Virus record (IMG/VR): IMGVR_UViG_3300015207_000030
Location: 1-23,780 of that record
Length of the DNA stretch: 23,780 bases
Strand: one strand, 5' to 3'
Origin: a virus
Taxonomy: Duplodnaviria > Heunggongvirae > Uroviricota > Caudoviricetes
The notes beneath the pieces are model-generated. The model ran no database searches, had not been told where the DNA came from, and was given only the letters and a program-made list of their open reading frames with translations. The translations under genes were made by a program, and so were the position numbers. Within the stretch, counting starts at the first letter, position 1. Each line of letters begins with the position of its first letter. Shown here piece by piece: positions 1 through 10,918 of the stretch.

Positions 1-342
1 AACGGAAGCCGCTACCATATGCTTAACCTCCACGCGACATTTACAAAGGGAACGGTCGAGTTCAGACTTTTTCAATTCGATGCGCCGAGCGACGGCAAAC
101 AAAATGGGCTACACGCGGGGCAGCTCAAGAGTTACATTCAGCTTTGTCTGGCACTGAGCGCACTTGCCAAGAACGCGAAAAGCGCCTCGCCCAAGCCCCA
201 GCAGACCGAAAACCCGAAATACGCGATGAGAACATGGCTGCTCCGCCTCGGCTTTATCGGCGACGAATTCAAGACCGCGCGTGAGACTTTCACAAAGCGG
301 CTCGACGGCAACGGTTCATTCCGAGCGCGCCGAGCGGCTTAA
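1..342 (+). CDS. Amidoligase-family protein (glutamine-synthetase-like fold), C-terminal part; gene starts upstream of the window
   Basis: Frame is open from base 1 (first listed Met at 19). The motif KGTVEFRLFQFD matches the G-T-x-E-x-R signature that lies near the C-terminal end of the catalytic domain in carboxylate-amine ligases, so the gene must start upstream. Followed by an AIG2-like gene, the neighbourhood reported for this family in Firmicutes. Motif recalled from memory. Confidence 0.5.
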   Translation, partial: NGSRYHMLNLHATFTKGTVEFRLFQFDAPSDGKQNGLHAGQLKSYIQLCLALSALAKNAKSASPKPQQTENPKYAMRTWLLRLGFIGDEFKTARETFTKRLDGNGSFRARRAA

Positions 343-419
343 CGCGGACCGCTTGCCCGCTTCGGCGGGCTTAAGGCGGTAGAGGAACGGTTGAACGTCC
401 TCGGAAAGGTGGAATTACA

Positions 420-872
420 ATGAAAAAACTGTACTTAGCTTACGGGAGCAATCTGAACACGGAGCAAATGCGCTTCCGCTGCCCGGGTGCAAAGCCCGTC
501 GGTACGGCGGTGATACGCAATTACGAGCTGCTGTTCAAGGGCTCGCGGACGGGCGCGTACCTCACGATAGAGCCGAAGCGCGGCGGCAAAGTTCCCGTTG
601 CGGTGTGGGAGGTAAGCGCCGAGAACGAACGGGCACTCGACCGTTACGAGGGCTTCCCGGCGTTCTACTACAAAAAGGATATGAACGTCAATGTCAGGCT
701 CCCTGACGGCACGGCCGAACGCCGAGCGGCTTTCGTGTACGTTATGCACGAGGAGCGTCCGCTCGGTGTGCCGACGGGAGCATACGTCGAATGCTGCCGC
801 GAGGGCTACGGGGAATTCGGCTTTGACGAACGGTTTATTGATAATGCAATCGAAAGGAGCGTGAATGTATGA
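420..872 (+). CDS. Gamma-glutamyl cyclotransferase-like protein (AIG2/GGCT family)
   Basis: 150 aa; N-terminal LYLAYGSNL motif (YGSN signature of AIG2/GGCT), later VAVWEV and LDRYEGFPAFYYKK segments typical of the fold; RBS AAAGGTGG about 7 nt upstream of ATG 420. Confidence 0.75.
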   Translation: MKKLYLAYGSNLNTEQMRFRCPGAKPVGTAVIRNYELLFKGSRTGAYLTIEPKRGGKVPVAVWEVSAENERALDRYEGFPAFYYKKDMNVNVRLPDGTAERRAAFVYVMHEERPLGVPTGAYVECCREGYGEFGFDERFIDNAIERSVNV

Positions 873-1072
873 ATAACAAGCACAGTGAGCGGCTTGGCGT
901 TGAATTCTGCCCGAAATGCGGCAAAGCGATAAGCGGCTATCCCGCAGTCTCGCGCGTCGACGGTTCGCCGATATGCTCCGACTGCGGTACCCGCGAGGCT
1001 TTGGAGAGCATTGGAGCGTGCGCCGCAGAGCAGGACAGGATCATCGAGCTGATACACAGGAATAGCCGTTGA
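869..1072 (+). CDS. Small zinc-ribbon protein (CxxC...CxxC)
   Basis: 67 aa with CPKCG and CSDCG pairs; start overlaps the stop of the GGCT-like gene (ATGA), suggesting translational coupling. Confidence 0.55.
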   Translation: MNNKHSERLGVEFCPKCGKAISGYPAVSRVDGSPICSDCGTREALESIGACAAEQDRIIELIHRNSR

Positions 1073-1080
1073 TATTCGTT

Positions 1081-1200
1081 TTGTGCAAATCCAACAATAT
1101 CACAATCCGATATTTGTGCACGTTTTTTGCGAAAAATGTAACGAATGTAACGAATGTAACGAACGAAGTGTGCTATAATTAAAATGGCAACAGAATGACC
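1081..1200. repeat. Copy A of a ~120 bp promoter-like direct repeat (copy B at 2839..2959)
   Basis: Aligns by eye with 2839..2959 at high identity. Contains TTGTGCA twice, an imperfect inverted repeat (CAACAATATC / GATATTTGTG), three perfect tandem 9-mers ATGTAACGA (1136..1162) and an extended -10 TGcTATAAT (1171..1179). Confidence 0.75.
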
Positions 1201-1224
1201 GTTCCGAACAAACGGCGGATAAAT

Positions 1225-1260
1225 AAAGCAACGGCAGCTCATTAACTGCCGTTGCTTTGT
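1225..1260 (-). terminator. Intrinsic terminator hairpin downstream of vapC; may also stop + strand transcripts from repeat A
   Basis: Perfect stem GCAACGGCAG (1228..1237) / CTGCCGTTGC (1246..1255) with 8 nt loop; A-tract on + strand upstream gives a U-tract on the minus-strand transcript; TTTGT follows on + strand. Confidence 0.6.
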
Positions 1261-1294
1261 ATATGGCACTTCCTTTTAAGAGTTCGTCGGACGT

Positions 1295-1699
1295 TCAAAG
1301 CGTTTCAAGAAAACTGCCGGGTTTGATCGCGGGGATATCGCTTTCCTCAAAATCGCGCGTGTTTTGGGTGATGATGTATTTGCACGAATTACGCTTTGCC
1401 GTGAGCATTTGAACGGAATCCTCAAAATCCCGCGCTTTAAGCCGTGCTGCTCCCAGCGTGTCTGCGGCTTTGAGATCGACAACGTCAAATATTGCCGCCA
1501 GCTTTATCACAAGATCGTCGGTTTTGTCGGGAGTAAGCTCGCGGCGGAGAATATACACGATATTCGCAATAGACAACGCGGAAACGATACCGTTTATCTG
1601 TCTTGTCTCGCACAGCTTCCATACCTCTGCGGACTGCTCAAAGCCTTGACGGCGTGAAAGCACATCTATCAGAATGTTTGTGTCAATCAAGACCTTCAT
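1295..1699 (-). CDS. vapC: PIN-domain toxin, VapC family
   Basis: 134 aa; N-terminal MKVLIDTNILID with the conserved acidic residue, plus DFEDS and IITQNTRDF segments typical of PIN nucleases; overlaps the upstream antitoxin gene by 17 nt. Confidence 0.8.
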   Translation of the reverse strand: MKVLIDTNILIDVLSRRQGFEQSAEVWKLCETRQINGIVSALSIANIVYILRRELTPDKTDDLVIKLAAIFDVVDLKAADTLGAARLKARDFEDSVQMLTAKRNSCKYIITQNTRDFEESDIPAIKPGSFLETL

Positions 1700-1916
1700 G
1701 CCGCATTACCTTCTCCTCGCGCATTTTTTTGTAATCATAATCGTTTTTTAGAACGCCCGTCAGCTCGTCGGTCAATGATGAAACGGTCTTTTCACGCGAA
1801 ATCATTCTTGCGACCTCTTCGCCGTTTTTGGTGATCCGGATTTCTTCGTTTGACTGCACCAGCTTCAGATATTTTCCGAAGTTGTTCTGCATTTCCGTTG
1901 CGGATACTGTTAACAT
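1683..1916 (-). CDS. Phd/YefM-family antitoxin
   Basis: 77 aa; N-terminal VSATEMQNNFGKYLKLV...ITKNGEEVARMIS pattern of Phd/YefM antitoxins; GGAGG RBS (complement of 1925..1930) about 8 nt upstream of the start. Confidence 0.75.
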   Translation of the reverse strand: MLTVSATEMQNNFGKYLKLVQSNEEIRITKNGEEVARMISREKTVSSLTDELTGVLKNDYDYKKMREEKVMRHEGLD

Positions 1917-1937
1917 AATAAATTCCTCCTTTGCATA

Positions 1938-1978
1938 TTAGCTAATTATATTATAGCTTATTTTAGCTAATTTGTCAA
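1938..1978 (-). promoter_or_regulatory. Consensus sigma-A-type promoter of the phd-vapC operon with two TTAGCTAA palindromic operator candidates
   Basis: On the minus strand: TTGACA (1978..1973), 17 nt spacer, TATAAT (1955..1950), both perfect consensus. The 8 bp palindrome TTAGCTAA occurs inside the spacer (1963..1970) and just downstream of the -10 (1938..1945). Confidence 0.6.
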
Positions 1979-2172
1979 GGGGAAAGTTAAGGAAAAAATA
2001 AGCTATGCCGTATAAAGCAAAGCGCACCTGCAATTTTCCGTGCTGTCCGAAAAAGGTACTGTGACGCCCCCGCGGGGGAGACTGCGGGCTCGTCGACCCC
2101 GAATTGCACGCAGTGACAGGCGAAAAAAAGGGGTCACTTTAATTGAAAAAGGTTGAAAGGAAGGTATAGGAT

Positions 2173-2823
2173 ATGCCGGGAAAAAGGAAAGCGGCGCAAA
2201 CAAATTCATTAGGTATGCAGAGCGGCAGCGGACAGGCGATTTTCTCTCTGCAAGCCGGAACGCCTATTTTTGTCAAGACTGCCGACGTGTGCTCGGCAAC
2301 GGGCAAAACCAATCAGTGGATAGGACAGCTGACTTCACAAGGGGTTATTCACAAATGCAGAACAAACCACGGTCAGCTGTACAGTCTTTTTGATATGATG
2401 CGGGCATACTGCGCATACCTTGAAGAACGCGCGAAAAAGGACGATGAGGATATCTGCCTGCTTGAGCTGCGAAAAAAACAAGCCGAAACCAAACTGAAAG
2501 AATCCAAGGCTGCTGTCGCGGAACTTGAGGCAGCCGAGTTTCAAGGAAAAATGCACCGCTCGGAGGACGTGCGCGCAATGACCGCCGATCTGTTGTATTA
2601 CGTTCGCGGTTCGCTGCTGGCGCTCGCGGGAAGATGCGCGGCAGACTGCGCCGCGTCGGCTGATCCTGCGGAGGTACAGAAGATCATAGAACGGGAGGTT
2701 TTCGCGATACTTAAAGACCTCTCCGAATACAAGTATGACAGCAAACGTTACGACGAGCTAGTCCGCGAACGCATGAAACGCAGTTCGGACACGGAGCTTT
2801 CCGATTTTGACGATGAAGATTGA
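2173..2823 (+). CDS. Terminase small subunit, lambda Nu1-like (winged HTH)
   Basis: 216 aa; N-terminal segment (VKTADVCSATGKTNQWIGQLTSQGVI...GQLYSLFDMMRAYCAYLEERAK) parallels the lambda Nu1 N-terminus as I recall it (TIQNW..QG...LYD...Y..R); coiled-coil middle, acidic C-terminus; sits upstream of the large terminase. Confidence 0.55.
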   Translation: MPGKRKAAQTNSLGMQSGSGQAIFSLQAGTPIFVKTADVCSATGKTNQWIGQLTSQGVIHKCRTNHGQLYSLFDMMRAYCAYLEERAKKDDEDICLLELRKKQAETKLKESKAAVAELEAAEFQGKMHRSEDVRAMTADLLYYVRGSLLALAGRCAADCAASADPAEVQKIIEREVFAILKDLSEYKYDSKRYDELVRERMKRSSDTELSDFDDED

Positions 2824-2838
2824 CGGATCGGTGTTGAC

Positions 2839-2959
2839 TTGTGCAAGTTGAACAATATCGCAAAACGATATTTGTGCAGCTTTTTTCAAAAAAATGTAAC
2901 GAATGTCACGAATGTAACGAATGAAGTGTGCTATAATTAAAATGGAAACAGAATGATCT
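2839..2959. repeat. Copy B of the promoter-like direct repeat
   Basis: Same architecture as copy A: TTGTGCA x2, inverted repeat, 9-mers ATGTAACGA / ATGTCACGA / ATGTAACGA (2894..2920), extended -10 TGcTATAAT (2929..2937). Confidence 0.75.
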
Positions 2960-2991
2960 TGCGGGACAGACGGTTTCTTTTAGAATATTTG

Positions 2992-3027
2992 CGGCTTGCG
3001 GTGTAATATTGCAAGCCGTTTCCTTTG
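2992..3027 (+). terminator. Hairpin plus T-tract between repeat B and the VRR-NUC gene (possible attenuator)
   Basis: Stem CGGCTTGC (2992..2999) / GCAAGCCG (3011..3018), 11 nt loop, followed by TTTCCTTTG directly before the RBS of the next gene. Confidence 0.4.
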
Positions 3028-3042
3028 TGAGGTGAAATTGAA

Positions 3043-3414
3043 GTGCAGCAAAAACAGCATATTGAAGATACCGAGCAGATACATCTTTTTGATTGGGCGG
3101 CGATGCAGTCGGGGAAATATCCCGAATTGTCGCTGCTTTTTCATATCCCGAACGGCGGCAAGCGTGACGCACGTGAGGCGGCGCGGTTCAAAAGAATGGG
3201 CGTAAAGGCGGGCGTTCCCGATCTGTTTCTGCCCGTTCCGCGCGGGAAGTTTCACGGATTGTTTGTCGAACTGAAAGCGCCGAAAGGAAAACTTTCCGAT
3301 TATCAGAAGCAGTGGCTTCAGGAGCTTGCGGCGAGCGGCTACGCGGCTTGCGTTTGTTTCGGTTTCGACGAGGCTCGGCAGGATATTATGAAGTATCTTG
3401 AGGGGAAATTCTGA
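3043..3414 (+). CDS. VRR-NUC domain nuclease (PD-(D/E)xK superfamily)
   Basis: 123 aa from a GTG start with RBS GAGGTG; motifs HIPNGG.R, GVPDL and FVELK...GKLS..Q..W match the VRR-NUC signature as I recall it. Confidence 0.75.
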   Translation: MQQKQHIEDTEQIHLFDWAAMQSGKYPELSLLFHIPNGGKRDAREAARFKRMGVKAGVPDLFLPVPRGKFHGLFVELKAPKGKLSDYQKQWLQELAASGYAACVCFGFDEARQDIMKYLEGKF

Positions 3415-3434
3415 TTTTGCAATCGATTGCAAAA
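3415..3434. promoter_or_regulatory. Perfect 20 bp palindrome TTTTGCAATCGATTGCAAAA
   Basis: Starts immediately after the VRR-NUC stop codon; perfect dyad symmetry read directly from the sequence. Confidence 0.5.
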
Positions 3435-3524
3435 ATTGCGCTGCGGAACGAACACGGAGCAGAATATGATTTTAGTTTGATAACCGCCGCGCTCTGCGGT
3501 TTTTCTTTTACGGAGGTGTAGAAC

Positions 3525-5441
3525 TTGCGAAACGAGACCAAGCGGCAGCGGGAGGCAAAGCTGAACGCGTGTATCACGAAAGTCTTGAACGCGATGAAGC
3601 CTCCCGAAATAAGAACAGTGGCGGAGTGGGCGGATAAGAACCGCCGTTTAACGTCGGAATCATCGGCGGAGGTAGGCAAATGGCGCACCTCGCGCACGCC
3701 GTATATGCTGGATATTCTGAACTCGTTCACCGACCCGAAGGTCGAGCACATTGTTGTGGTTGCCTCCTCGCAGGTCGGGAAATCCGAGGTTGAAAACAAT
3801 ATCGTCGGATACATTATAGATCAGGACCCCGGTCCGATATTATTTGTACAGCCGACGGTAGACGACGCGAAGAAATATTCCGAAATGCGTATCGCTCCGA
3901 TGATACGTGAAACAAAGTGCCTTAAGAAAAAGGTCGCGGACCCGAAAACGCGCGATGGCGCAAACACCAAGCGTCAGAAAGCGTTTCCGGGAGGAGTGCT
4001 CGTGCTAGCGGGTTCAAATGTTCCACATGATCTGTGTTCAATGCCTATTCGGTATCTGATCGGCGACGAGCGTGACCGTTGGGCAAAATCGGCGGGCTCG
4101 GAGGGCGATCCATGGGAACTGGCGGTCGCGCGTACAAGAACGTTTTACAACCGCAAGCTGATAGAGGTCTCCACGCCGACCGTTAAAGGAGCGTCCGCTA
4201 TTGCCAAGGCGTACAGTCTCGGTACTATGGAGCGTTGGAAAACACAATGTCAGCATTGCGGCGGGTATTCCGAGGTGCAGTTTGAAGATATCCGTTTTGA
4301 ATATGATTCCGTTGACAAAGATGAAGAGAAGATATTCGATATCAAGTCGATTTTCTATGTTTGTCCGATTTGCGGCGGCGTTTCTTTGGAGAACGAGGTG
4401 AAAAAACAGCCGTCGAAATGGGAGGCGGAAGTGCCCGAGGCAAAGGAACTGCATAAGACCCGTTCGTTCTGGCTGACGGCATGGGTCTCCCCGTGGGCAA
4501 CATGGGAGTCTATCATACTGCAATTCCTGCAAGCGGGTACGGATTCCGCAAAGCTGCAGGTAGTGTACAACACTCAATTCGGCAAGCTGTGGGAAAATCG
4601 CGGCGATATGGACAGCGAGGAGGATATGCTCGCGCGTCGCGAGGAATACGGTGCGGAGCTGCCGGACGGCGTTCTGGTGCTGACGTGCGGCGTTGATACA
4701 CAGGACGACCGCTTGGAATATGAGGTGGTGGGCTATGGACATTTTAAAGAAAAATGGGGCATAAAAAAGGGCGTCATTATGGGCAGACCCGATACAAACG
4801 AAGTGTGGGAGCGGCTTGATGATGTTATAGCTCACAAATACACATTTTCAAACGGGCTGTCGCTCGGCGTATCGTTGACGTTTGTCGATGAGGGCGGTCA
4901 TTTTACACAGGAGGTACGCAGGCGCTGCCGCGAGCGGCAAAGCAAAAACGTATTTGCGATCAAGGGCGCATCGGGCAGTCGGGATATTCCGTATACGTCC
5001 GTTCCGAAACGGCAGAAGATCGTAATAAACGGTCAGACCGTCGGTTCTGTATGGGTGTATGAGATCGGCGTTGACGCGGGCAAGCAAAAGATCTTTGACG
5101 ATCTGCGTGTGCAGACGCCCGGGGCGAATTACTGCCATTTCCCGCGCCGCGACGATTACGGTAAGGCGTTCTTCAAGTCGTATATGTCGGAACGCCTGAC
5201 ATATAACGAAAAACTCAAAAACCCGTGGCGTTGGGAAAAAATTCCCGGGCATGAGCGTAACGAGGCACTGGACTGCCGAAATTACGCAAACGCGGCATTT
5301 GCGGCACTCGATCCCGATCTTGACGCTGTCGAACATCGATTAAAAGCGATGTTAATCGGAACAACGGCAGGCGCGCCGAAAAAGAAATCCCCGAAAACAG
5401 CGAGAAGAAAGCCGACGGACACGGCATACAGCGATTGGTGA
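3525..5441 (+). CDS. terL: Terminase large subunit, lambda GpA family
   Basis: 638 aa; TTG start after RBS GGAGGTG; Walker A-like SSQVGKSE within a PYMLDILNS...LFVQPTVDDA...PMIRE block matching the lambda gpA N-terminal ATPase region; CQHCGG and CPICGG zinc-finger-like pairs. Confidence 0.85.
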   Translation: MRNETKRQREAKLNACITKVLNAMKPPEIRTVAEWADKNRRLTSESSAEVGKWRTSRTPYMLDILNSFTDPKVEHIVVVASSQVGKSEVENNIVGYIIDQDPGPILFVQPTVDDAKKYSEMRIAPMIRETKCLKKKVADPKTRDGANTKRQKAFPGGVLVLAGSNVPHDLCSMPIRYLIGDERDRWAKSAGSEGDPWELAVARTRTFYNRKLIEVSTPTVKGASAIAKAYSLGTMERWKTQCQHCGGYSEVQFEDIRFEYDSVDKDEEKIFDIKSIFYVCPICGGVSLENEVKKQPSKWEAEVPEAKELHKTRSFWLTAWVSPWATWESIILQFLQAGTDSAKLQVVYNTQFGKLWENRGDMDSEEDMLARREEYGAELPDGVLVLTCGVDTQDDRLEYEVVGYGHFKEKWGIKKGVIMGRPDTNEVWERLDDVIAHKYTFSNGLSLGVSLTFVDEGGHFTQEVRRRCRERQSKNVFAIKGASGSRDIPYTSVPKRQKIVINGQTVGSVWVYEIGVDAGKQKIFDDLRVQTPGANYCHFPRRDDYGKAFFKSYMSERLTYNEKLKNPWRWEKIPGHERNEALDCRNYANAAFAALDPDLDAVEHRLKAMLIGTTAGAPKKKSPKTARRKPTDTAYSDW

Positions 5442-5451
5442 GGTAACCGAA

Positions 5452-5709
5452 ATGATAAGTAAAAAAACCGCGCGGAAGATGTACAACTACTACACCGAGC
5501 GCATAGATCAGCTGATACAAGCGCAGACCGCATTGACGAGCGGCGGCGTTAAATCGTACACTATCGGCGACAGACAGGTCACGAAATTTGACTTGACGCG
5601 GCTGTCGCAGGAGCTTGATGATGCTGTGGAGAAACAGGCGTATTACGATGCGATACTTAAAGGCAAGCCTACGCGCGCGATCGTGGGGATCGTTCCGACG
5701 GATAAATAA
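5452..5709 (+). CDS. Head-tail joining / head completion protein, lambda gpW-like
   Basis: 85 aa directly after terL; LTSGG...YTIGDRQVT...L..L pattern resembles lambda W; position matches lambda gene order. Confidence 0.5.
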   Translation: MISKKTARKMYNYYTERIDQLIQAQTALTSGGVKSYTIGDRQVTKFDLTRLSQELDDAVEKQAYYDAILKGKPTRAIVGIVPTDK

Positions 5710-5740
5710 AACAGCGGCAGCTTTGAGGGCTGCCGCTGCT
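5710..5740. terminator. Bidirectional intrinsic terminator shared by the W-like gene (+) and hicB (-)
   Basis: Stem CAGCGGCAGC (5712..5721) / GCTGCCGCTG (5729..5738) with 7 nt loop; A-rich on the left (U-tract for the minus transcript) and T-containing on the right. Confidence 0.6.
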
Positions 5741-5743
5741 TGG

Positions 5744-6151
5744 TTAATCTTGAATGTGACATTGCTTTTTCAGACCGTCCAGAAGCACGGCTGAGAAATT
5801 CACGCCCTGTTCTTCGGCGATTGCGTTGACCCAACCGGGAATGGAGAGGGTTTTCTTTACGAAGTGCTTGTGCATTTTCTCGCGGAACGGTTTCATATAG
5901 ACTTCGATAAGCATTGGAAGCTCGTTTTTTTCAAGCTGAATATCCTTAAGCTCCGAGGGCTCAGGAATTTCCTCCTTGTCCTCCTCCATTCCGTAAAGGT
6001 GCAGCAGAAGAGCGTCTTTAGCGCTTTCGATTGCTTTTTCGGTGGTTTCCCCCGCGCTTACACAGCCGGGGAGGTCGGGGAAATATATGCCGATTGTTCC
6101 TTTATCGCCGTATTCCAACACGGCGATAAATCTGTATTTGTCGAGGTACAT
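5744..6151 (-). CDS. hicB: HicB-family antitoxin-like protein with C-terminal DNA-binding (RHH-like) tail; no HicA partner found
   Basis: 135 aa; N-terminal YRFIAVLEYGDKGTIGIYFPDLPGCVSAGETTEKAIESAKDALLLHL matches the HicB/UPF0150 signature (PDLPGC core); C-terminal KKTLSIPGWVNAIAEEQGVNFSAVLLDGLKK resembles an RHH/CopG-type segment; RBS AGGAG 6 nt upstream. Confidence 0.75.
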   Translation of the reverse strand: MYLDKYRFIAVLEYGDKGTIGIYFPDLPGCVSAGETTEKAIESAKDALLLHLYGMEEDKEEIPEPSELKDIQLEKNELPMLIEVYMKPFREKMHKHFVKKTLSIPGWVNAIAEEQGVNFSAVLLDGLKKQCHIQD

Positions 6152-6262
6152 AAAGTTCTCCTTTCGATAGTCGGCATTACCGAGGGTTTAACAATTATAT
6201 TGTAATACGCAATTTGTTACGTGTCAAGTGGCTTTTCAAAAATTTTTAAAGAAGGTGAAAAA

Positions 6263-7777
6263 ATGAGCGGCTATTCAGATGCGGGCGCGAGTTATGACAA
6301 ACGCGCCTTAAAAGCCTTTATAGCGCGTTCTCTGTCGGCGATAGAGGATATCGACTATAACAACTTTACGCTGCGGCAGCGTGCGCGTATGCTGTATATG
6401 GCGTCGCCGATAGCGGCGGCAGCGATCAACACCAACCGCACAAAGATAGTCGGCAAAGGTCTGCGGCTGAAATGCAACATTGATTATGAGACGCTGGGGA
6501 TTTCCCCCGAGGCAGCCAAGAAATGGTGCAGACGCACCGAGGCGGCGTTCCGCTTTTGGTGCGAGGATCGCCGCAACTGCGACGCGCTCGGAATAAACAA
6601 TTTTTTCGAGCTTCAAAGTCTGGCGTGCAAATCATGGCTGATGAGCGGAGACGTTTTCGTGTTGCTGAAGCGCGAAAAGGCAACTCCGCTCAATCCGTAC
6701 ACACTGCGGCTGCATCTTGTCGAAGCCGATCGCGTATGCACTCCCGCGACCGCGGACGGCGGTTTGTGGAACGTTACCGAGGGCGAGTACAAGGGTCACA
6801 AGGTGCATGACGGCGTTGAGGTCGACGACAACGGTAAAGCGGTCGCGTACCACGTCTGCAACATCTATCCGGGGCAGATGAGCGCAAAAACGGAGAATTG
6901 GGTGCGTATAAAGGCAGTCGGCGAAAAAACGGGGCTGCCGAATATTCTGCACATAATGGACGCGGAGCGTCCCGATCAGTATCGGGGCGTTTCTTATTTG
7001 GCGTCGGTTATCGAGATGATCCTGCAGCTGCGCAGATACGTTGAGAGCGAACTGTTGGCGGCGCTTGTGCAGACATACCTTACTGCGTGGATAAAAGCCG
7101 CAGGCGACACGTCAGAAATGCCTATCATAGGGGATCAGGACGAGGAGGACGAAGAGGAACGATATGACAAAGACCCGCAGATGGCTCCCGGGAACGTTAT
7201 ACATTTAAAGCCCGGCGAGGATGTTATTTTCGGCAATCCGAATATCCCGACAGCGGGCTTTGAGACGTTCTCCAAGACGATCATAAAGCAGATAGGCGCT
7301 GGGCTTGAAATACCGTATGATGTGCTTGTCAAAGAGTTCAATTCCTCGTATTCCGCGTCAAAGGGCGCGCTCGAGGAGGCTTGGGAGGCTGTCAAAATGC
7401 GCCGCGCGTGGTTCGTGTCGGATTTTTGCCAGCCGATTTACGAGGTCTGGCTTTCGGAGGCGGTCGCGCTCGGCAAGATAAACGCTCCCGGTTTTTTCGA
7501 TGATCCGCTTATACGAGCGGCTTGGTGCGGTTCACGCTGGGACGGCCCCGCGCAAACTCACCTTGATCCGCTTAAAGAGGCAAAAGCAAACGCTATACTC
7601 GTTCAGAACGGCTGGAAAACCAACGAGCAGACCACACGCGAGTATTACGGCGAGAATTGGGAGGAAAATATGCAGCAGCTCGAACAGGAGAACGGGCTGA
7701 AAAACGCCGTTTGTCCGCCTGTAACAAATATGGATTTCAGCGATGAGGAGGAAGACGAAGATGCCAAAAACGATTGA
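6263..7777 (+). CDS. Portal protein, lambda gpB family
   Basis: Listed ORF starts at GTG 6221; I prefer ATG 6263 behind RBS GAAGGTGA. The segment FETFSKTIIKQIGAGLEIPYDVLVKEFNSSYSASKGALEEAWEAVKMRRAWFVSDFCQPIYEVWLSEAV parallels the lambda gpB C-terminal region as I recall it; acidic C-terminal tail. Confidence 0.8.
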   Translation: MSGYSDAGASYDKRALKAFIARSLSAIEDIDYNNFTLRQRARMLYMASPIAAAAINTNRTKIVGKGLRLKCNIDYETLGISPEAAKKWCRRTEAAFRFWCEDRRNCDALGINNFFELQSLACKSWLMSGDVFVLLKREKATPLNPYTLRLHLVEADRVCTPATADGGLWNVTEGEYKGHKVHDGVEVDDNGKAVAYHVCNIYPGQMSAKTENWVRIKAVGEKTGLPNILHIMDAERPDQYRGVSYLASVIEMILQLRRYVESELLAALVQTYLTAWIKAAGDTSEMPIIGDQDEEDEEERYDKDPQMAPGNVIHLKPGEDVIFGNPNIPTAGFETFSKTIIKQIGAGLEIPYDVLVKEFNSSYSASKGALEEAWEAVKMRRAWFVSDFCQPIYEVWLSEAVALGKINAPGFFDDPLIRAAWCGSRWDGPAQTHLDPLKEAKANAILVQNGWKTNEQTTREYYGENWEENMQQLEQENGLKNAVCPPVTNMDFSDEEEDEDAKND

Positions 7778-8999
7778 ACGCGCTTGTTATGCGCTGGCAG
7801 CCGACAGCAAATCGGAAACGGCAGAGCTTACGCTTTACGGAAACGTTGTCAAAAGGCGTCCGCTCGAGATCGATTGGGATAACGACAGGATCGCCAAGTC
7901 GACGGATAATTATATCGTTGAACAGGAATTTCTCGACGATTTAAAGGCTGTCGGGAAATGCAGGAAATTGAATATCCGCGTGAACTCTCTCGGCGGCGAT
8001 GTGCATGTCGCGCTTACAATTTACAGCCGTTTGCGCGAGCTCACGGAAAACGGCACGGAGCTTACCTGTTCCGTGGACGGAGTGGCAATGTCGGCGGGTT
8101 CGATGATAATGTGCGCCGCTGATAAGGTCACGGCAAGCGAAAGCTCGCTGATAATGGTTCACCGCAGTATGACGATGCCGCCGGATTATCTTAACGCGGA
8201 CGAGCTTCGCAAAGAGGCGGAGAGAATGGACGAGTACGACAAGGCGATAGCGTCCTGTTACAAACGCAAAACGGGAAAGTCCGAGGCGGAGCTGCTCCGC
8301 ATGATGAGTAAGGAGACATATATGACGGGCGCGGAGGCAAAGGACGCGGGCTTTGTGGACGAGCTTACAAGCTCTGAAAAATTAATAGCGATCGCGGCTT
8401 GTGCGGATATGAGATCACTTATGGTGGGCGGCAGAACGTTCGATTTAATGGGCGCTCCCATGCCCTTGAATTTACCGACGGTAACACAGCCCGAGCCGCA
8501 AGGCGGCGCGGACGTTACAGATATATCACAAACTGAAGGAGGTAACGGAATTATGGCAAATAACTTTGATGAACTGCTTAAAGAGAACCCCGCTCTCGCG
8601 GCGGCTATCGAAAAGGAGTTAAAGGCAAAAGCCGAGGCGGACGTTTCGGCTAAGGCGAACGAGACGGCAGCTAAAGCGGTCGAAGCGGAGCGGAAGAGAA
8701 TAGCCGAGATCGACGAGATAGCGGCGCTGTATTCTCCCGAACTGGTGGAGGCGGCGAAGTACGGCGACAAGGCGTGTACAGCGCAGGAACTCAGCTACAG
8801 AGCGGCTGTCGAGAACGCCAAGAGGGGCAGGAAGTTCGGCGACGATCTTCTGGCTGACGCAAAGGATTCGGGAGTGGGCGGCGTTCATGCTGCCGTTCCG
8901 CCCGCCGAGGGCAATGGCGGCGAAAAGTCGGAGGACGAGCTTATGGCAGAGGCAAGAGCAGCCGTTAAGGCGGCGCTCGGAGAGGAGGTAACGGCATGA
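7761..8999 (+). CDS. Prohead protease (ClpP/S49-like) fused to or nested with a scaffold domain, lambda gpC-like
   Basis: NSLGGDV and GVAMSAGSMIM match ClpP-family serine protease motifs; C-terminal third is Ala/Glu/Lys-rich coiled coil typical of scaffolds. Start could be ATG 7743 or ATG 7761 (RBS GAGGAGG). Confidence 0.75.
   Translation: MPKTIERACYALAADSKSETAELTLYGNVVKRRPLEIDWDNDRIAKSTDNYIVEQEFLDDLKAVGKCRKLNIRVNSLGGDVHVALTIYSRLRELTENGTELTCSVDGVAMSAGSMIMCAADKVTASESSLIMVHRSMTMPPDYLNADELRKEAERMDEYDKAIASCYKRKTGKSEAELLRMMSKETYMTGAEAKDAGFVDELTSSEKLIAIAACADMRSLMVGGRTFDLMGAPMPLNLPTVTQPEPQGGADVTDISQTEGGNGIMANNFDELLKENPALAAAIEKELKAKAEADVSAKANETAAKAVEAERKRIAEIDEIAALYSPELVEAAKYGDKACTAQELSYRAAVENAKRGRKFGDDLLADAKDSGVGGVHAAVPPAEGNGGEKSEDELMAEARAAVKAALGEEVTA
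8553..8999 (+). CDS. Possible nested in-frame scaffold protein (lambda Nu3-like arrangement)
   Basis: Internal in-frame ATG at 8553 preceded by strong RBS GAAGGAGG (8535..8542); downstream sequence is the coiled-coil Ala/Glu-rich part of the protease ORF. Confidence 0.35.
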   Translation: MANNFDELLKENPALAAAIEKELKAKAEADVSAKANETAAKAVEAERKRIAEIDEIAALYSPELVEAAKYGDKACTAQELSYRAAVENAKRGRKFGDDLLADAKDSGVGGVHAAVPPAEGNGGEKSEDELMAEARAAVKAALGEEVTA

Positions 9000-9364
9000 C
9001 GGAGCTGTCAAAGAAAACAGCCGCTATGGAGCCCGACGATCTGGTAGTCGGCACACAGCCGCCTTTGCGGACGGTCGGCGCGACCGTTAAAGGCGGCGCG
9101 GGCGAGCTTAAACGCGGCACGATAATGGCAAAGGGAGCGGACGGACTGCTGGATATTCTCGGAAAAGATACCGAAGCGGAGGCTTACGGCATTCTGACCG
9201 ACGATATCAACGCTGCCGACGGCGATCAGCCCGCAGTGATCTACATCAGCGGCAAATTCAACGCCAACAAAATGATCGCCGCGGACGGCTATACGATCAC
9301 GGAAAAAGACAAGGATACGCTACGCAAGTACGGCATCGAGCTTACCGCCGCGCTGTCCTATTGA
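8996..9364 (+). CDS. Head decoration protein, lambda gpD-like
   Basis: 122 aa between protease/scaffold and major capsid; AYGILTDDINAADGDQPAVIYISGKFNANKMI resembles the lambda D core (GILA...T.Y.SG.F). Confidence 0.55.
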   Translation: MTELSKKTAAMEPDDLVVGTQPPLRTVGATVKGGAGELKRGTIMAKGADGLLDILGKDTEAEAYGILTDDINAADGDQPAVIYISGKFNANKMIAADGYTITEKDKDTLRKYGIELTAALSY

Positions 9365-9384
9365 TAAAAGGAGGGACTTTGATA

Positions 9385-10461
9385 ATGCCTAATACGCTTG
9401 ATATTTTCAGCTCCTATACAATGCTGGCGACTCTGGAGCTTGTTAAGCCCGAGACGCTGTTCTTTTCGTCGCGCTATTTCCCTACGGGAGCGGGGGATAT
9501 TTTCAATTCCGACAAGGTGCTTGTCGAATACACAAAGGGCGACCGCAAAATGGCTCCGTTCGTTTCGGAGAGGATCGGCGCTGTTCCCGTTGAGAGACGG
9601 GGCTACGAGATACGCGAGTTTGCGCCCGCGCACATCGGCGTTTCGCGCACGCTCACTCTGGACGATCTTAAAAAGCGCGGGTTCGGCGAGGCGCTGTACT
9701 CCAATACCAAGCCCGCGGAGCGCGCTCTGCGTATGCAGCTTGAGGATATGACCGATCTTAACAAACGCATTTCACGCCGCGAGGAGTGGATGTCGGTGCA
9801 GACCATGATCAACAACGCCTGCCCCGTACAGGAGATGTTTGACGCGAAAACGGTGGGCGAGGAGAAACTCGTACAGTTCTTCGGCAGCGAAAGCTCCGAG
9901 CATATTTACACCGTCGCCAATATGTGGAATTCCAAAGACGGAAACATAACCGGAGACGTTTATGTAATGTGCGAGCAGCTTGCAGGCAGAGGACTGAACG
10001 CCGTCGATCTGGTTATCGGCTCGGACGTTGCGGACGTGTTCTACGACGATCCTGTCATCGCGAGAATGATAGACAAAAACTCGGGCATCAATTTCGGCAT
10101 GATAAACGAGCAGATAGTTTATCCCGGAGTATCGCAGATAGGTCCTCTTAATTTCAGAGGGCACTGGCTGACCATTTATGTGGTGTCGACGTCTTACGAG
10201 GACGAAAACGGCGTTACAAGACCGTATTTCCCCAAAAATTCGGCTATGGTAACATATCCGAATTGCGGCCACAAAATGTACGGGCGGATCACGCAGATGC
10301 CTTACGGTTCTATCGATTACAAGACGATCGCGGCAAAACGTGTTCCGAAGCTTATAGTGGACAATGCCAACGATACGAGAGCGCTGTCGCTCAAAACGCG
10401 TCCGCTTACTGCACCGAGGACATACTGCCCGTACATCTACGCGGCAAACGTAGTGGGCTGA
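9385..10461 (+). CDS. Major capsid protein, lambda gpE family
   Basis: ATG 9385 behind RBS AAAGGAGGG; the N-terminal 90 aa share the pattern Y...P..F.S.YFP...MA.FVS...PV...G..EF.P with lambda E as I recall it; size and position fit. Confidence 0.75.
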   Translation: MPNTLDIFSSYTMLATLELVKPETLFFSSRYFPTGAGDIFNSDKVLVEYTKGDRKMAPFVSERIGAVPVERRGYEIREFAPAHIGVSRTLTLDDLKKRGFGEALYSNTKPAERALRMQLEDMTDLNKRISRREEWMSVQTMINNACPVQEMFDAKTVGEEKLVQFFGSESSEHIYTVANMWNSKDGNITGDVYVMCEQLAGRGLNAVDLVIGSDVADVFYDDPVIARMIDKNSGINFGMINEQIVYPGVSQIGPLNFRGHWLTIYVVSTSYEDENGVTRPYFPKNSAMVTYPNCGHKMYGRITQMPYGSIDYKTIAAKRVPKLIVDNANDTRALSLKTRPLTAPRTYCPYIYAANVVG

Positions 10462-10483
10462 CGCATTGGGAAAGGAGAACGAT

Positions 10484-10918
10484 ATGCTGATAAAGATCAT
10501 TCGCGGTACATACGGACTTAAAAGCGGCAATATTATCAAGCCGAAAACCTGCAGCGACCCGCCCTTTCATGTTGAACATGAGGAGGGCGAGCGGCTGATA
10601 CGTCTTGGTATTGCTGATTTAGTTTTCTCTGACACTATGCCGCCTGTAAGGAACAAAGGGGACGATCCGAATGCTGTTCCCGACAGCAAGGTTCGGGTGT
10701 TGGACAGCGATGACGACGAGGGCTACGAGGTCAAGAGCACGGTTGAAGAACGCGACGTTCCCGAATACAGCGAGGACAACACAAACGCCGAATTGCAAGC
10801 GATTGCAAAAGAATACGGCATAGAATTTCCGCAGCGTGCAAACAAGGCGCAGATGCTCGACGCGCTTGACGAGTTTTTCGGCGGCACGCCCGAGATCAGC
10901 GCAAGGGAGCCCGAATAA
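10484..10918 (+). CDS. Hypothetical head-associated protein with C-terminal HeH/Rho-N-like motif
   Basis: ATG 10484 with RBS AAGGAG; C-terminal NAELQAIAKEYGIEFPQRANKAQMLDALDEF resembles a Rho-N/SAP-like helix-extension-helix motif; acidic middle. Confidence 0.45.
   Translation: MLIKIIRGTYGLKSGNIIKPKTCSDPPFHVEHEEGERLIRLGIADLVFSDTMPPVRNKGDDPNAVPDSKVRVLDSDDDEGYEVKSTVEERDVPEYSEDNTNAELQAIAKEYGIEFPQRANKAQMLDALDEFFGGTPEISAREPE

Follow-up and report, generated by a model that had tools for sequence, protein, structure and literature searches.

The DNA analysed here (the window) spans 23,780 nucleotides (nt) of the viral record IMGVR_UViG_3300015207_000030 and makes up the late region of a temperate, contractile-tailed phage. 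It contains two copies of a promoter-like element, copy A and copy B, with the small terminase gene terS (2173–2823, plus strand; phrog_57, 8.4e-22) between them, and it is this element that concerns us. The window opens with the C-terminus of an amidoligase, a GGACT protein and a zinc-ribbon protein of 67 amino acids (aa), after which come copy A, a phd-vapC toxin–antitoxin cassette on the minus strand, a conserved non-coding stretch, terS, copy B, a VRR-NUC nuclease gene, a GpA-type large terminase gene (terL) and a head–tail adaptor gene. Beyond a minus-strand hicB gene lie the portal, protease, decoration, capsid, sheath, tape measure and baseplate genes. The phd-vapC cassette (1295–1916, minus strand; Pfam PIN_3 1.5e-19 and PhdYeFM 5.6e-11) separates copy A from terS and has its own promoter, a perfect TTGACA-17-TATAAT at 1978–1950 in a promoter consensus scan. 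The same scan is consistent with the remark in the first-pass annotation of this DNA that the terS gene shows no obvious promoter. VRR-NUC (3043–3414, plus strand) is the first late gene that copy B is predicted to serve; the GpA-type large terminase follows (3525–5441, plus strand), with portal, protease, capsid, sheath and tail genes on the same strand beyond it. A blastn search of INPHARED with the window returned a sole match, 164 nt of terS at 75% identity, and hence no close cultured relative; a terS-based search of IMG/VR found homologues of 48–66% identity in 28 viral contigs.

The two copies form a direct repeat (1081–1215 and 2839–2973) that aligns without gaps over 135 nt at 85% identity. 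The three tandem 9-mers, the extended −10 and the upstream imperfect inverted repeat that the first-pass annotation had described are all real. Tandem triplets of ATGTAACGA occur in the window only at 1136–1162 and 2894–2920, the middle unit of copy B carrying one mismatch, and no further box arrays were found across the 23.8 kb. Single 9-mers are not above chance (7 found vs 5.3 expected), but the 23-mer GAAGTGTGCTATAATTAAAATGG, which spans the −10, has exactly 2 occurrences against 0 expected. In copy A, three abutting 9-bp boxes (TGTAACGAA three times; 1137–1163, plus strand, about −49 to −23) stand in for a −35 element. They are followed by a 7-nt spacer and an extended −10 (together 1164–1179, plus strand; TGTG at 1169–1172, TATAAT at 1174–1179, giving TGcTATAAT at 1171–1179), and then an A/T-rich discriminator, TAAAAT (1180–1185, plus strand, within 1180–1215). 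From the position of the −10, transcription is predicted to start at about 1186–1187 on the plus strand. Copy B (2839–2937, plus strand) repeats this arrangement, with boxes TGTAACGAA TGTCACGAA TGTAACGAA (2895–2921, plus strand), TGcTATAAT at 2929–2937 within TGTG-c-TATAAT at 2927–2937, and a predicted start at about 2944. In both copies the bases 5′ of the −10 thus give TGTG-n-TATAAT, the TRTG ‘−16’ motif, which is typical of Gram-positive sigma-A promoters. A −35-like hexamer is absent at both copies, and the consensus scan, which requires one, lists neither site.

Upstream of the boxes lies a module (1081–1135 in copy A, plus strand, about −105 to −51 from the predicted start) that copy B also has. 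It comprises two TTGTGCA boxes (1081–1088 and 1113–1120, plus strand), the imperfect inverted repeat AACAATATC-N7-GATATTTGT (1093–1118 in copy A, 2851–2876 in copy B) and a T-run followed by an A-run (1123–1135, plus strand); exact matches to GATATTTGTGCA are restricted to copies A and B. The first 30 nt or so of the copy A leader (up to about 1215) are likewise common to copy B and include a small hairpin, CCGTT-N7-AACGG. Four independent assemblies agree in having both copies intact and identical, and since the same arrangement is found in several independent assemblies the repeat is no assembly artefact. Two contigs (L189 and L190; L numbers denote the contigs compared) end at about window position 1101, that is, about 29 nt past the zinc-ribbon stop codon and inside copy A; such breaks in several independent assemblies are expected, because a 135-bp repeat confuses assemblers. 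The repeated element is real and functional-looking.

The element was traced first in the 28 terS-based IMG/VR loci and then, with degenerate patterns, in collections of viral, genome and metagenome sequences; exact 28-mers and 20-mers had no matches in IMG/VR, and degenerate patterns were needed. The family has a constant architecture of 43 nt, (TGTNNCNNN)x3 + 7 nt + TGnTAnAAT, which is present in many related gut Clostridia phages. Two copies each were found in the window, in 26 L002-type phages and in a Lachnospiraceae metagenome-assembled genome (MAG), and the architecture is also present in L001, L065/L179, L122, L139, L155, L156, L078 and L176. TRTG-n-TAnAAT is kept in 15 of the 15 aligned promoters and stands 7 nt past the third box in all lineages; the upstream T/A tract and the phasing are also kept across lineages. 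In most lineages a second hexamer, nAnAAT, directly follows the −10 and would occupy −6 to −1, given that the −10 is indeed the first hexamer. The boxes themselves differ by lineage: TGTAAC in the window, TGTCAC in L001, L057, L122 and L156, TGTCCC in the L002-type phages, L139 and L155, and TGTTAC in L078, L175 and L176. Fixed phasing together with lineage-varying boxes would be expected of a promoter to which a lineage-specific DNA-binding protein attaches. An ECF-sigma promoter was also considered, as TGTAAC resembles such a −35, and was rejected: there is no conserved CGTC-like −10 at 16–17 nt, and TRTG-n-TAnAAT is invariant.

All copies are intergenic, co-oriented with the downstream genes and at the head of gene blocks, the genes 3′ of them being Terminase_4-like, HNH plus terS, or VRR-NUC plus terL. 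Copy B is orthologous to the promoters of L001, L057 and L156 both by position (the intergenic region between terS and VRR-NUC) and by flanks. The 55-nt upstream module is kept in the terS-proximal (‘P2-type’) promoters of L001 (at about 6680–6720), L057, L156 and the L002-type phages; it is missing from the promoters that adjoin the activator gene described below. This distribution points to a second DNA-binding factor that may act on the packaging and structural promoters alone. As shared among terS-proximal promoters, the module reads RATAATAWC-N7-GATATTTGTGCA plus the second TTGTGCA box (window 1081–1120 and 2839–2878).

The gene for the likely activator is absent from the window and present in L179, a 62-kb contig retrieved by exact-protein look-up that has 99.35% identity to window positions 1–10871. 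In L179, a regulator gene of 135 aa (4726–5133) lies 5.5 kb upstream of copy A with a terminator behind it, and is followed by a third promoter copy at 5190–5232 (TGTAACGAA TGTCACTTT TGTTACGAA cgatatg TGATATAAT). After this promoter come a Terminase_4-like gene, two methyltransferase genes, the amidoligase, GGACT and zinc-ribbon genes, and then copy A, phd-vapC, terS and copy B. By this sequence evidence the phage has three predicted promoters of one type, of which copies A and B are the extra, distal copies. The first-pass annotation had pointed to flanking phage DNA as the place to look for a late activator or a Q-like antiterminator; what lies there is an Ltr-like gene followed by the third promoter copy, and no Q-family match was found.

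Adjacency of regulator gene and promoter recurs in the relatives. Homologues of 133–135 aa stand just 5′ of a promoter copy in the Lachnospiraceae MAG L056 and in L175, L176, L178, L065 and L122. The core copy begins 2 nt past the stop codon of a 138-aa gene in 26 of 26 L002-type contigs (L016/L029–L054); the array lies 12 nt past the regulator stop codon in L175 and 56 nt past it, beyond the terminator, in L179. The promoter copy sits beyond the terminator of the regulator gene, or beyond a small inserted gene, in L179/L065 and L056. The gene follows replication, recombination and RNase_T genes and precedes terminase-like genes (L178, L179, L175, L176 and L016). In L175, genes for Csf1, RAMP and Csf3 (type IV CRISPR-Cas-like; 5614–8260) are found just 5′ of the PAPS-reductase and late regulator genes.

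The regulators are 133–138 aa long, with an isoelectric point (pI) of 8.4–9.7 in 22 of 24 and a C-terminal domain of pI 9.4–10.4. The PHROG family phrog_36, ‘transcriptional regulator’, matches all 22 family members searched (22/22; best 1e-15) and phrog_248, ‘transcriptional activator’, matches eight of the 22; an Alt-like PHROG matches one member weakly. Pfam DUF1492 (the LtrB family) is weakly present in 13 of 22, with a best E value of 5.6e-4, below the gathering score. Pfam, NCBIfam and PDB sequence searches of the regulator gave no significant match, and none to a Q family or other antiterminator. An AlphaFold model (predicted local distance difference test score 86.5) has a helical hairpin and a C-terminal three-helix bundle. 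Foldseek with this model found nothing significant; the best compact match superimposes the bundle on sigma region 4 (1.8 Å over 55 columns, not significant). We consider the regulator a probable basic helix-turn-helix protein, distantly related to DUF1492/LtrB and Alt-like late activators. The box follows the activator lineage: regulators with ...SVKH go with TGTCAC, those with SVKN/M with TGTTAC, and the ELGGGNT subfamily with TGTCCC, the regulator of the window’s phage being paired with TGT[A/C/T]AC boxes. In L078 a promoter locus (4802–5290; TGTTAC three times, terminator at +39 to +69) starts 3 nt past a 140-aa open reading frame (ORF), whose product showed no relationship to the family of the 135-aa regulator (p135) in hhalign; the packaging genes of this contig are Terminase_2/Terminase_6N. 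The 67-aa zinc-ribbon protein 5′ of copy A was considered as an Ogr-like regulator and set aside, because the regulator-adjacent copies, L176 and L078 lack such a neighbour, whereas a p135-type gene has this adjacency.

Each window copy is followed by a hairpin, as the first-pass annotation had noted, and both hairpins exist; they are not homologous, however, because the repeat ends at about 1215 and 2973, before either stem. The copy A hairpin (stem 1223–1237/1246–1260) belongs to an 83-nt leader that folds with −30.4 kcal/mol (z = −4.6). As a bidirectional terminator-like hairpin (1219–1264, both strands) it forms the 3′ end of the minus-strand cassette and is what transcripts from copy A would first have to pass. 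On the minus strand it folds with −25.3 kcal/mol (z = −5.8), and it is a better terminator for minus-strand vapC (tail TTTATTTAT) than for the plus strand (tail TTTGTATAT, a weaker T-tract). Over 27 nt it is 89% alike (1213–1264) to the hairpin after hicB (5701–5749, within 5696–5749), which suggests that the 3′ hairpins of vapC and hicB represent a common terminator module of inserted minus-strand genes of toxin–antitoxin type. The copy B leader with its intrinsic terminator (2944–3027, plus strand; stem 2991–3019, tail TTTCCTTTG), which also appears in the terminator-like scan list, is 87 nt long and folds with −26.2 kcal/mol (z = −2.6). About 16 nt separate the end of this terminator from the start codon of VRR-NUC at 3043, leaving no space for another promoter. 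Its stem, GCGGCTTGC/GCAAGCCGT, has the ortholog GGCGGCTTGT/ACAAGCCGCC in L001 and L057, and L156 shows compensatory differences.

The succession of promoter and terminator is a conserved trait of the family. All of the promoters examined (16/16) are followed by a hairpin of −15.5 kcal/mol or below with a T-rich tail ending at +37 to +78, compared with only 18% of random 115-nt segments of the same loci that reach −12 kcal/mol. The terS-proximal hairpins are plain intrinsic terminators of differing sequence, too near the first gene for a second promoter. In the leaders adjacent to the regulator (L179 5239–5321 and its equivalents in L016, L056, L099, L122, L139 and L175), the hairpin is conserved and pairs an anti-Shine–Dalgarno CTCCT with the ribosome-binding site, AGGAG, while enclosing a GC-rich inner hairpin; it has a few compensatory changes, and a U-rich spacer leads to the start codon of the Terminase_4-like gene. 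The simplest account of these hairpins, and the one we prefer, is that of partly efficient (leaky) terminators, which would curb basal and upstream read-through and so keep the late genes silent until the activator drives strong initiation.

Taken with the adjacent regulator, these features make it probable that copy A is an activator-dependent late promoter for the housekeeping sigma factor, a member of the Ltr-dependent late-promoter class and one of three in this phage. An activator with direct-repeat sites is a known switch of late packaging genes in phages of Gram-positive bacteria. The Ltr families of Gram-positive temperate phages are RinA, ArpU, LtrA, LtrB/DUF1492 and LtrC (PMC3753634), and their specificity is set by the regulator's C-terminal part and by the repeat sequence (PMC3753634; phi13 P23 in PMC13123087). 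Here, a small basic regulator is encoded between replication/recombination and terminase-like genes (via L179), direct repeats stand immediately distal to its coding sequence, and repeats paired with a sigma-A type −10 stand 5′ of terS and of the late operon. Ltr systems likewise have two to four direct repeats placed just distal to the regulator gene, which are needed for activation; there too the repeat sequence sets specificity, the −10 is of sigma-A type, and the promoter heads packaging, morphogenesis and lysis genes. The regulator here is weakly similar to DUF1492 and, short of significance, to sigma region 4. With a DUF1492 likeness below the Pfam threshold, it would be at best a new, distant family.

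There are differences from the characterised members. Three abutting 9-mers reach −23 and replace the −35 here, while the phi13 repeats lie at −107 to −42 (PMC13123087) and those of RinA more than 155 bp upstream. The phages described here have two or three promoters per genome instead of one, each followed by a terminator-like hairpin; they are associated with gut Lachnospiraceae/Oscillospiraceae hosts, and the phage of the window is contractile-tailed. A similar layout is that of Alt of Lactococcus phage TP901-1, an activator which, as summarised in PMC3152322 and PMC13123087, binds a series of direct repeats at −76 to −32, and so within the −35 region too, of a late promoter 5′ of terS; one member of our family also has the weak match to an Alt-like PHROG. 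The TP901-1 repeats are four, imperfect and of longer span, and neither a multi-copy regulon nor a leader terminator is described for TP901-1 in those two papers.

A scheme for the late genes can be drawn on this basis. The three boxes, as predicted binding sites, would most likely be bound by the 135-aa Ltr-like helix-turn-helix protein, and the bound activator would recruit or stabilise an RNA polymerase otherwise held by the −10 region alone. The promoter just past the activator gene (P1) would drive the DNA-modification genes, copy A would head the packaging module, and copy B, between terS and VRR-NUC/terL, would drive a structural operon of more than 20 kb. Transcripts from copy A would either stop at the bidirectional terminator of the cassette, as an RNA of about 75–80 nt, or read through, antisense to phd-vapC, into terS. 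As a rule for late promoters, (TGTNNCNNN)x3 + 7 nt + TRTG-n-TAnAAT + leader hairpin would mark the regulon of an uncharacterised late activator in widespread prophages of human and animal gut Clostridia; it should aid the annotation of operon starts and the prediction of prophages that share regulators. The natural specificity variants TGTAAC, TGTCAC, TGTTAC and TGTCCC could serve as orthogonal inducible promoter–activator pairs in Clostridia, and, with promoter and terminator so strictly coupled, Ltr-type control over termination could be tested cleanly.

The first-pass annotation had likened the element to a late promoter with the logic of lambda pR′/tR′. The late promoter is strongly supported by the relatives and the layout recurs at 16 of 16 promoters, but the regulator is no Q homologue. 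In its full form this explanation is promoter-loaded antitermination: the box-binding protein or a partner would join polymerase at these promoters and make it terminator-resistant, only polymerases started there would get past the leader terminator and those of inserted genes, and only a 40–80-nt RNA would be made otherwise. There are likenesses to the lambdoid Q/pR′/tR′ system: there too the regulator gene is directly upstream, the DNA site of the regulator lies inside the promoter, and a short leader ends in an intrinsic terminator with a single, very long late operon beyond. The invariable hairpin, the lack of space for a promoter between terminator and first gene at copy B and its orthologues, the regulator gene directly 5′ of a promoter copy and the position of copy A 5′ of a bidirectional terminator that terS expression must cross would all be accounted for. 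So would phi11 and 80alpha, in which a terminator lies between the RinA-binding repeats and terS and the mechanism has been called ‘more complex’ than direct contact (PMC3152322). But the regulator has no homology to any Q family, and the predicted transcribed region has no pause-inducing −10-like element: the second −10-like hexamer would, with the first as the true −10, lie right beside it at −6 to −1, and so outside the transcript, in which a pause element is expected. The promoter lacks a −35 and is therefore probably activator-dependent, not constitutive as in the lambdoid system; the characterised Ltr proteins are described as activators only; the ribosome-binding site is part of the regulator-adjacent hairpins, which may instead affect translation or RNA stability; and several T-tracts are imperfect, as leaky termination would allow. 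We therefore regard Q-like antitermination as unlikely, and give a similarly low chance to the 135-aa protein being, beyond an activator, an antiterminator loaded at the promoter and thereby the functional analogue, in Firmicutes phages, of lambda Q. Were it one, the leader terminator would block other transcription so that polymerases from boxed promoters alone entered the late genes, copy A would serve to start terminator-proof antisense transcripts that run through phd-vapC into terS, and the puzzle of the terminator between RinA sites and terS in staphylococcal phages could be explained.

Two further explanations carry less weight than activated initiation at a late promoter. Copy A might be a small-RNA promoter, also raised by the first-pass annotation, giving a discrete RNA of about 75–80 nt, from 1186 to about 1264, in cis-antisense orientation to the vapC mRNA at its 3′ end; extended, it would cover the whole phd-vapC operon, and the cassette would be modulated late in infection. 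A strong promoter core with a very stable hairpin 45–80 nt on, a transcript that would overlap the convergent vapC terminator, and the absence of both copy A and the cassette from L001 and L002 would fit. The case is weak, however: apart from the hairpin, leaders are not conserved from one lineage to another, elsewhere promoters of this type head protein-coding operons, and the copy A leader, a truncated B leader joined to a foreign terminator, resembles a by-product of rearrangement. An Rfam scan of the window gave no match at E <= 1, and Rfam on three related loci gave tRNA matches and one below-threshold Plastid-ycf2 overlapping a tRNA gene of L016, with none in the leaders; we judge the small RNA improbable. 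Least probable is a site acting at the DNA level, whether terminase recognition repeats (pac/cosB-like), replication iterons or inert recombination scars flanking the cassette. Both window copies adjoin terS, tandem short repeats with A/T-rich flanks do resemble iterons or terminase-binding sites, and copy A adjoins an inserted cassette. Yet the phasing to TRTG-n-TAnAAT is fixed in every lineage, one copy lies 5–6 kb from terS beside the regulator gene, and core genes lie between copies that are intact and identical in the four independent assemblies. One and the same promoter type moreover occurs with three unrelated terminase systems (GpA, PF03354 and Terminase_6N), and this independence of box type from packaging system speaks against a role as packaging site. 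There is also a separate cos-like region 5′ of terS, which is conserved and has a 12-bp palindrome. This region, the conserved non-coding stretch 2040–2172, is directly 5′ of terS, aligns with L001 5886–6000 and is a candidate cos site for the GpA-type terminase; the palindrome, CCCCCGCGGGGG, is perfect and lies at 2067–2078.

The first-pass annotation had offered, as an alternative, that the repeats mark the boundaries of an acquired cassette. This does not agree with the segment between them, which holds the core gene terS and the cos-like region that relatives also have; compared with those relatives, only copy A and phd-vapC are extra in the window. In L001/L178 and L002 a DUF7698 or DUF7678 gene takes the position of copy A and phd-vapC. 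Copy A has the terS-proximal upstream module and hence appears to be a duplicate of the terS-proximal type; its leader tracks that of copy B for about 30 nt and then joins the hairpin that resembles the hicB one. It reads as a recent internal duplicate of copy B, and its hairpin as a heterologous terminator that came with the phd-vapC cassette. No near-identical phages without copy A and the cassette were found by exact-protein look-ups, all variants found having both. A short ORF at 2006–2065 (MPYKAKRTCNFPCCPKKVL*) is a 19-codon 5′ remnant of an HNH endonuclease gene, and intact HNH genes that share its start, MPYKAKRPC..., come after the same promoter type in L155 and L176. In these two contigs the promoter, with its terminator, heads an HNH–terS block. 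Together with the HNH remnant of the window, that arrangement suggests that the head of the packaging block is an ancestral position for a promoter and that the cassette was inserted behind it.

The degenerate pattern also catches unrelated sequences, among them coding repeats in L066, L073 and L084, so context is needed to call a match. Environmental chromosomal contigs contain unrelated intergenic elements in which three to four TGTACC-type 9-mers run into TGGTACAAT, with terminator-like hairpins 5′ of them; such elements were seen in L159 (2232–2274, between kdsB and hisG), L112, L116, L120, L133, L144, L145, L149, L169 and L174. In L002-type phages, tRNA genes (Cys, Lys) follow the terS-proximal promoter and its terminator and precede terL, replacing VRR-NUC (L002 7048–7118; L016 6761–6831 and 7127–7201; L003 8339–8413).

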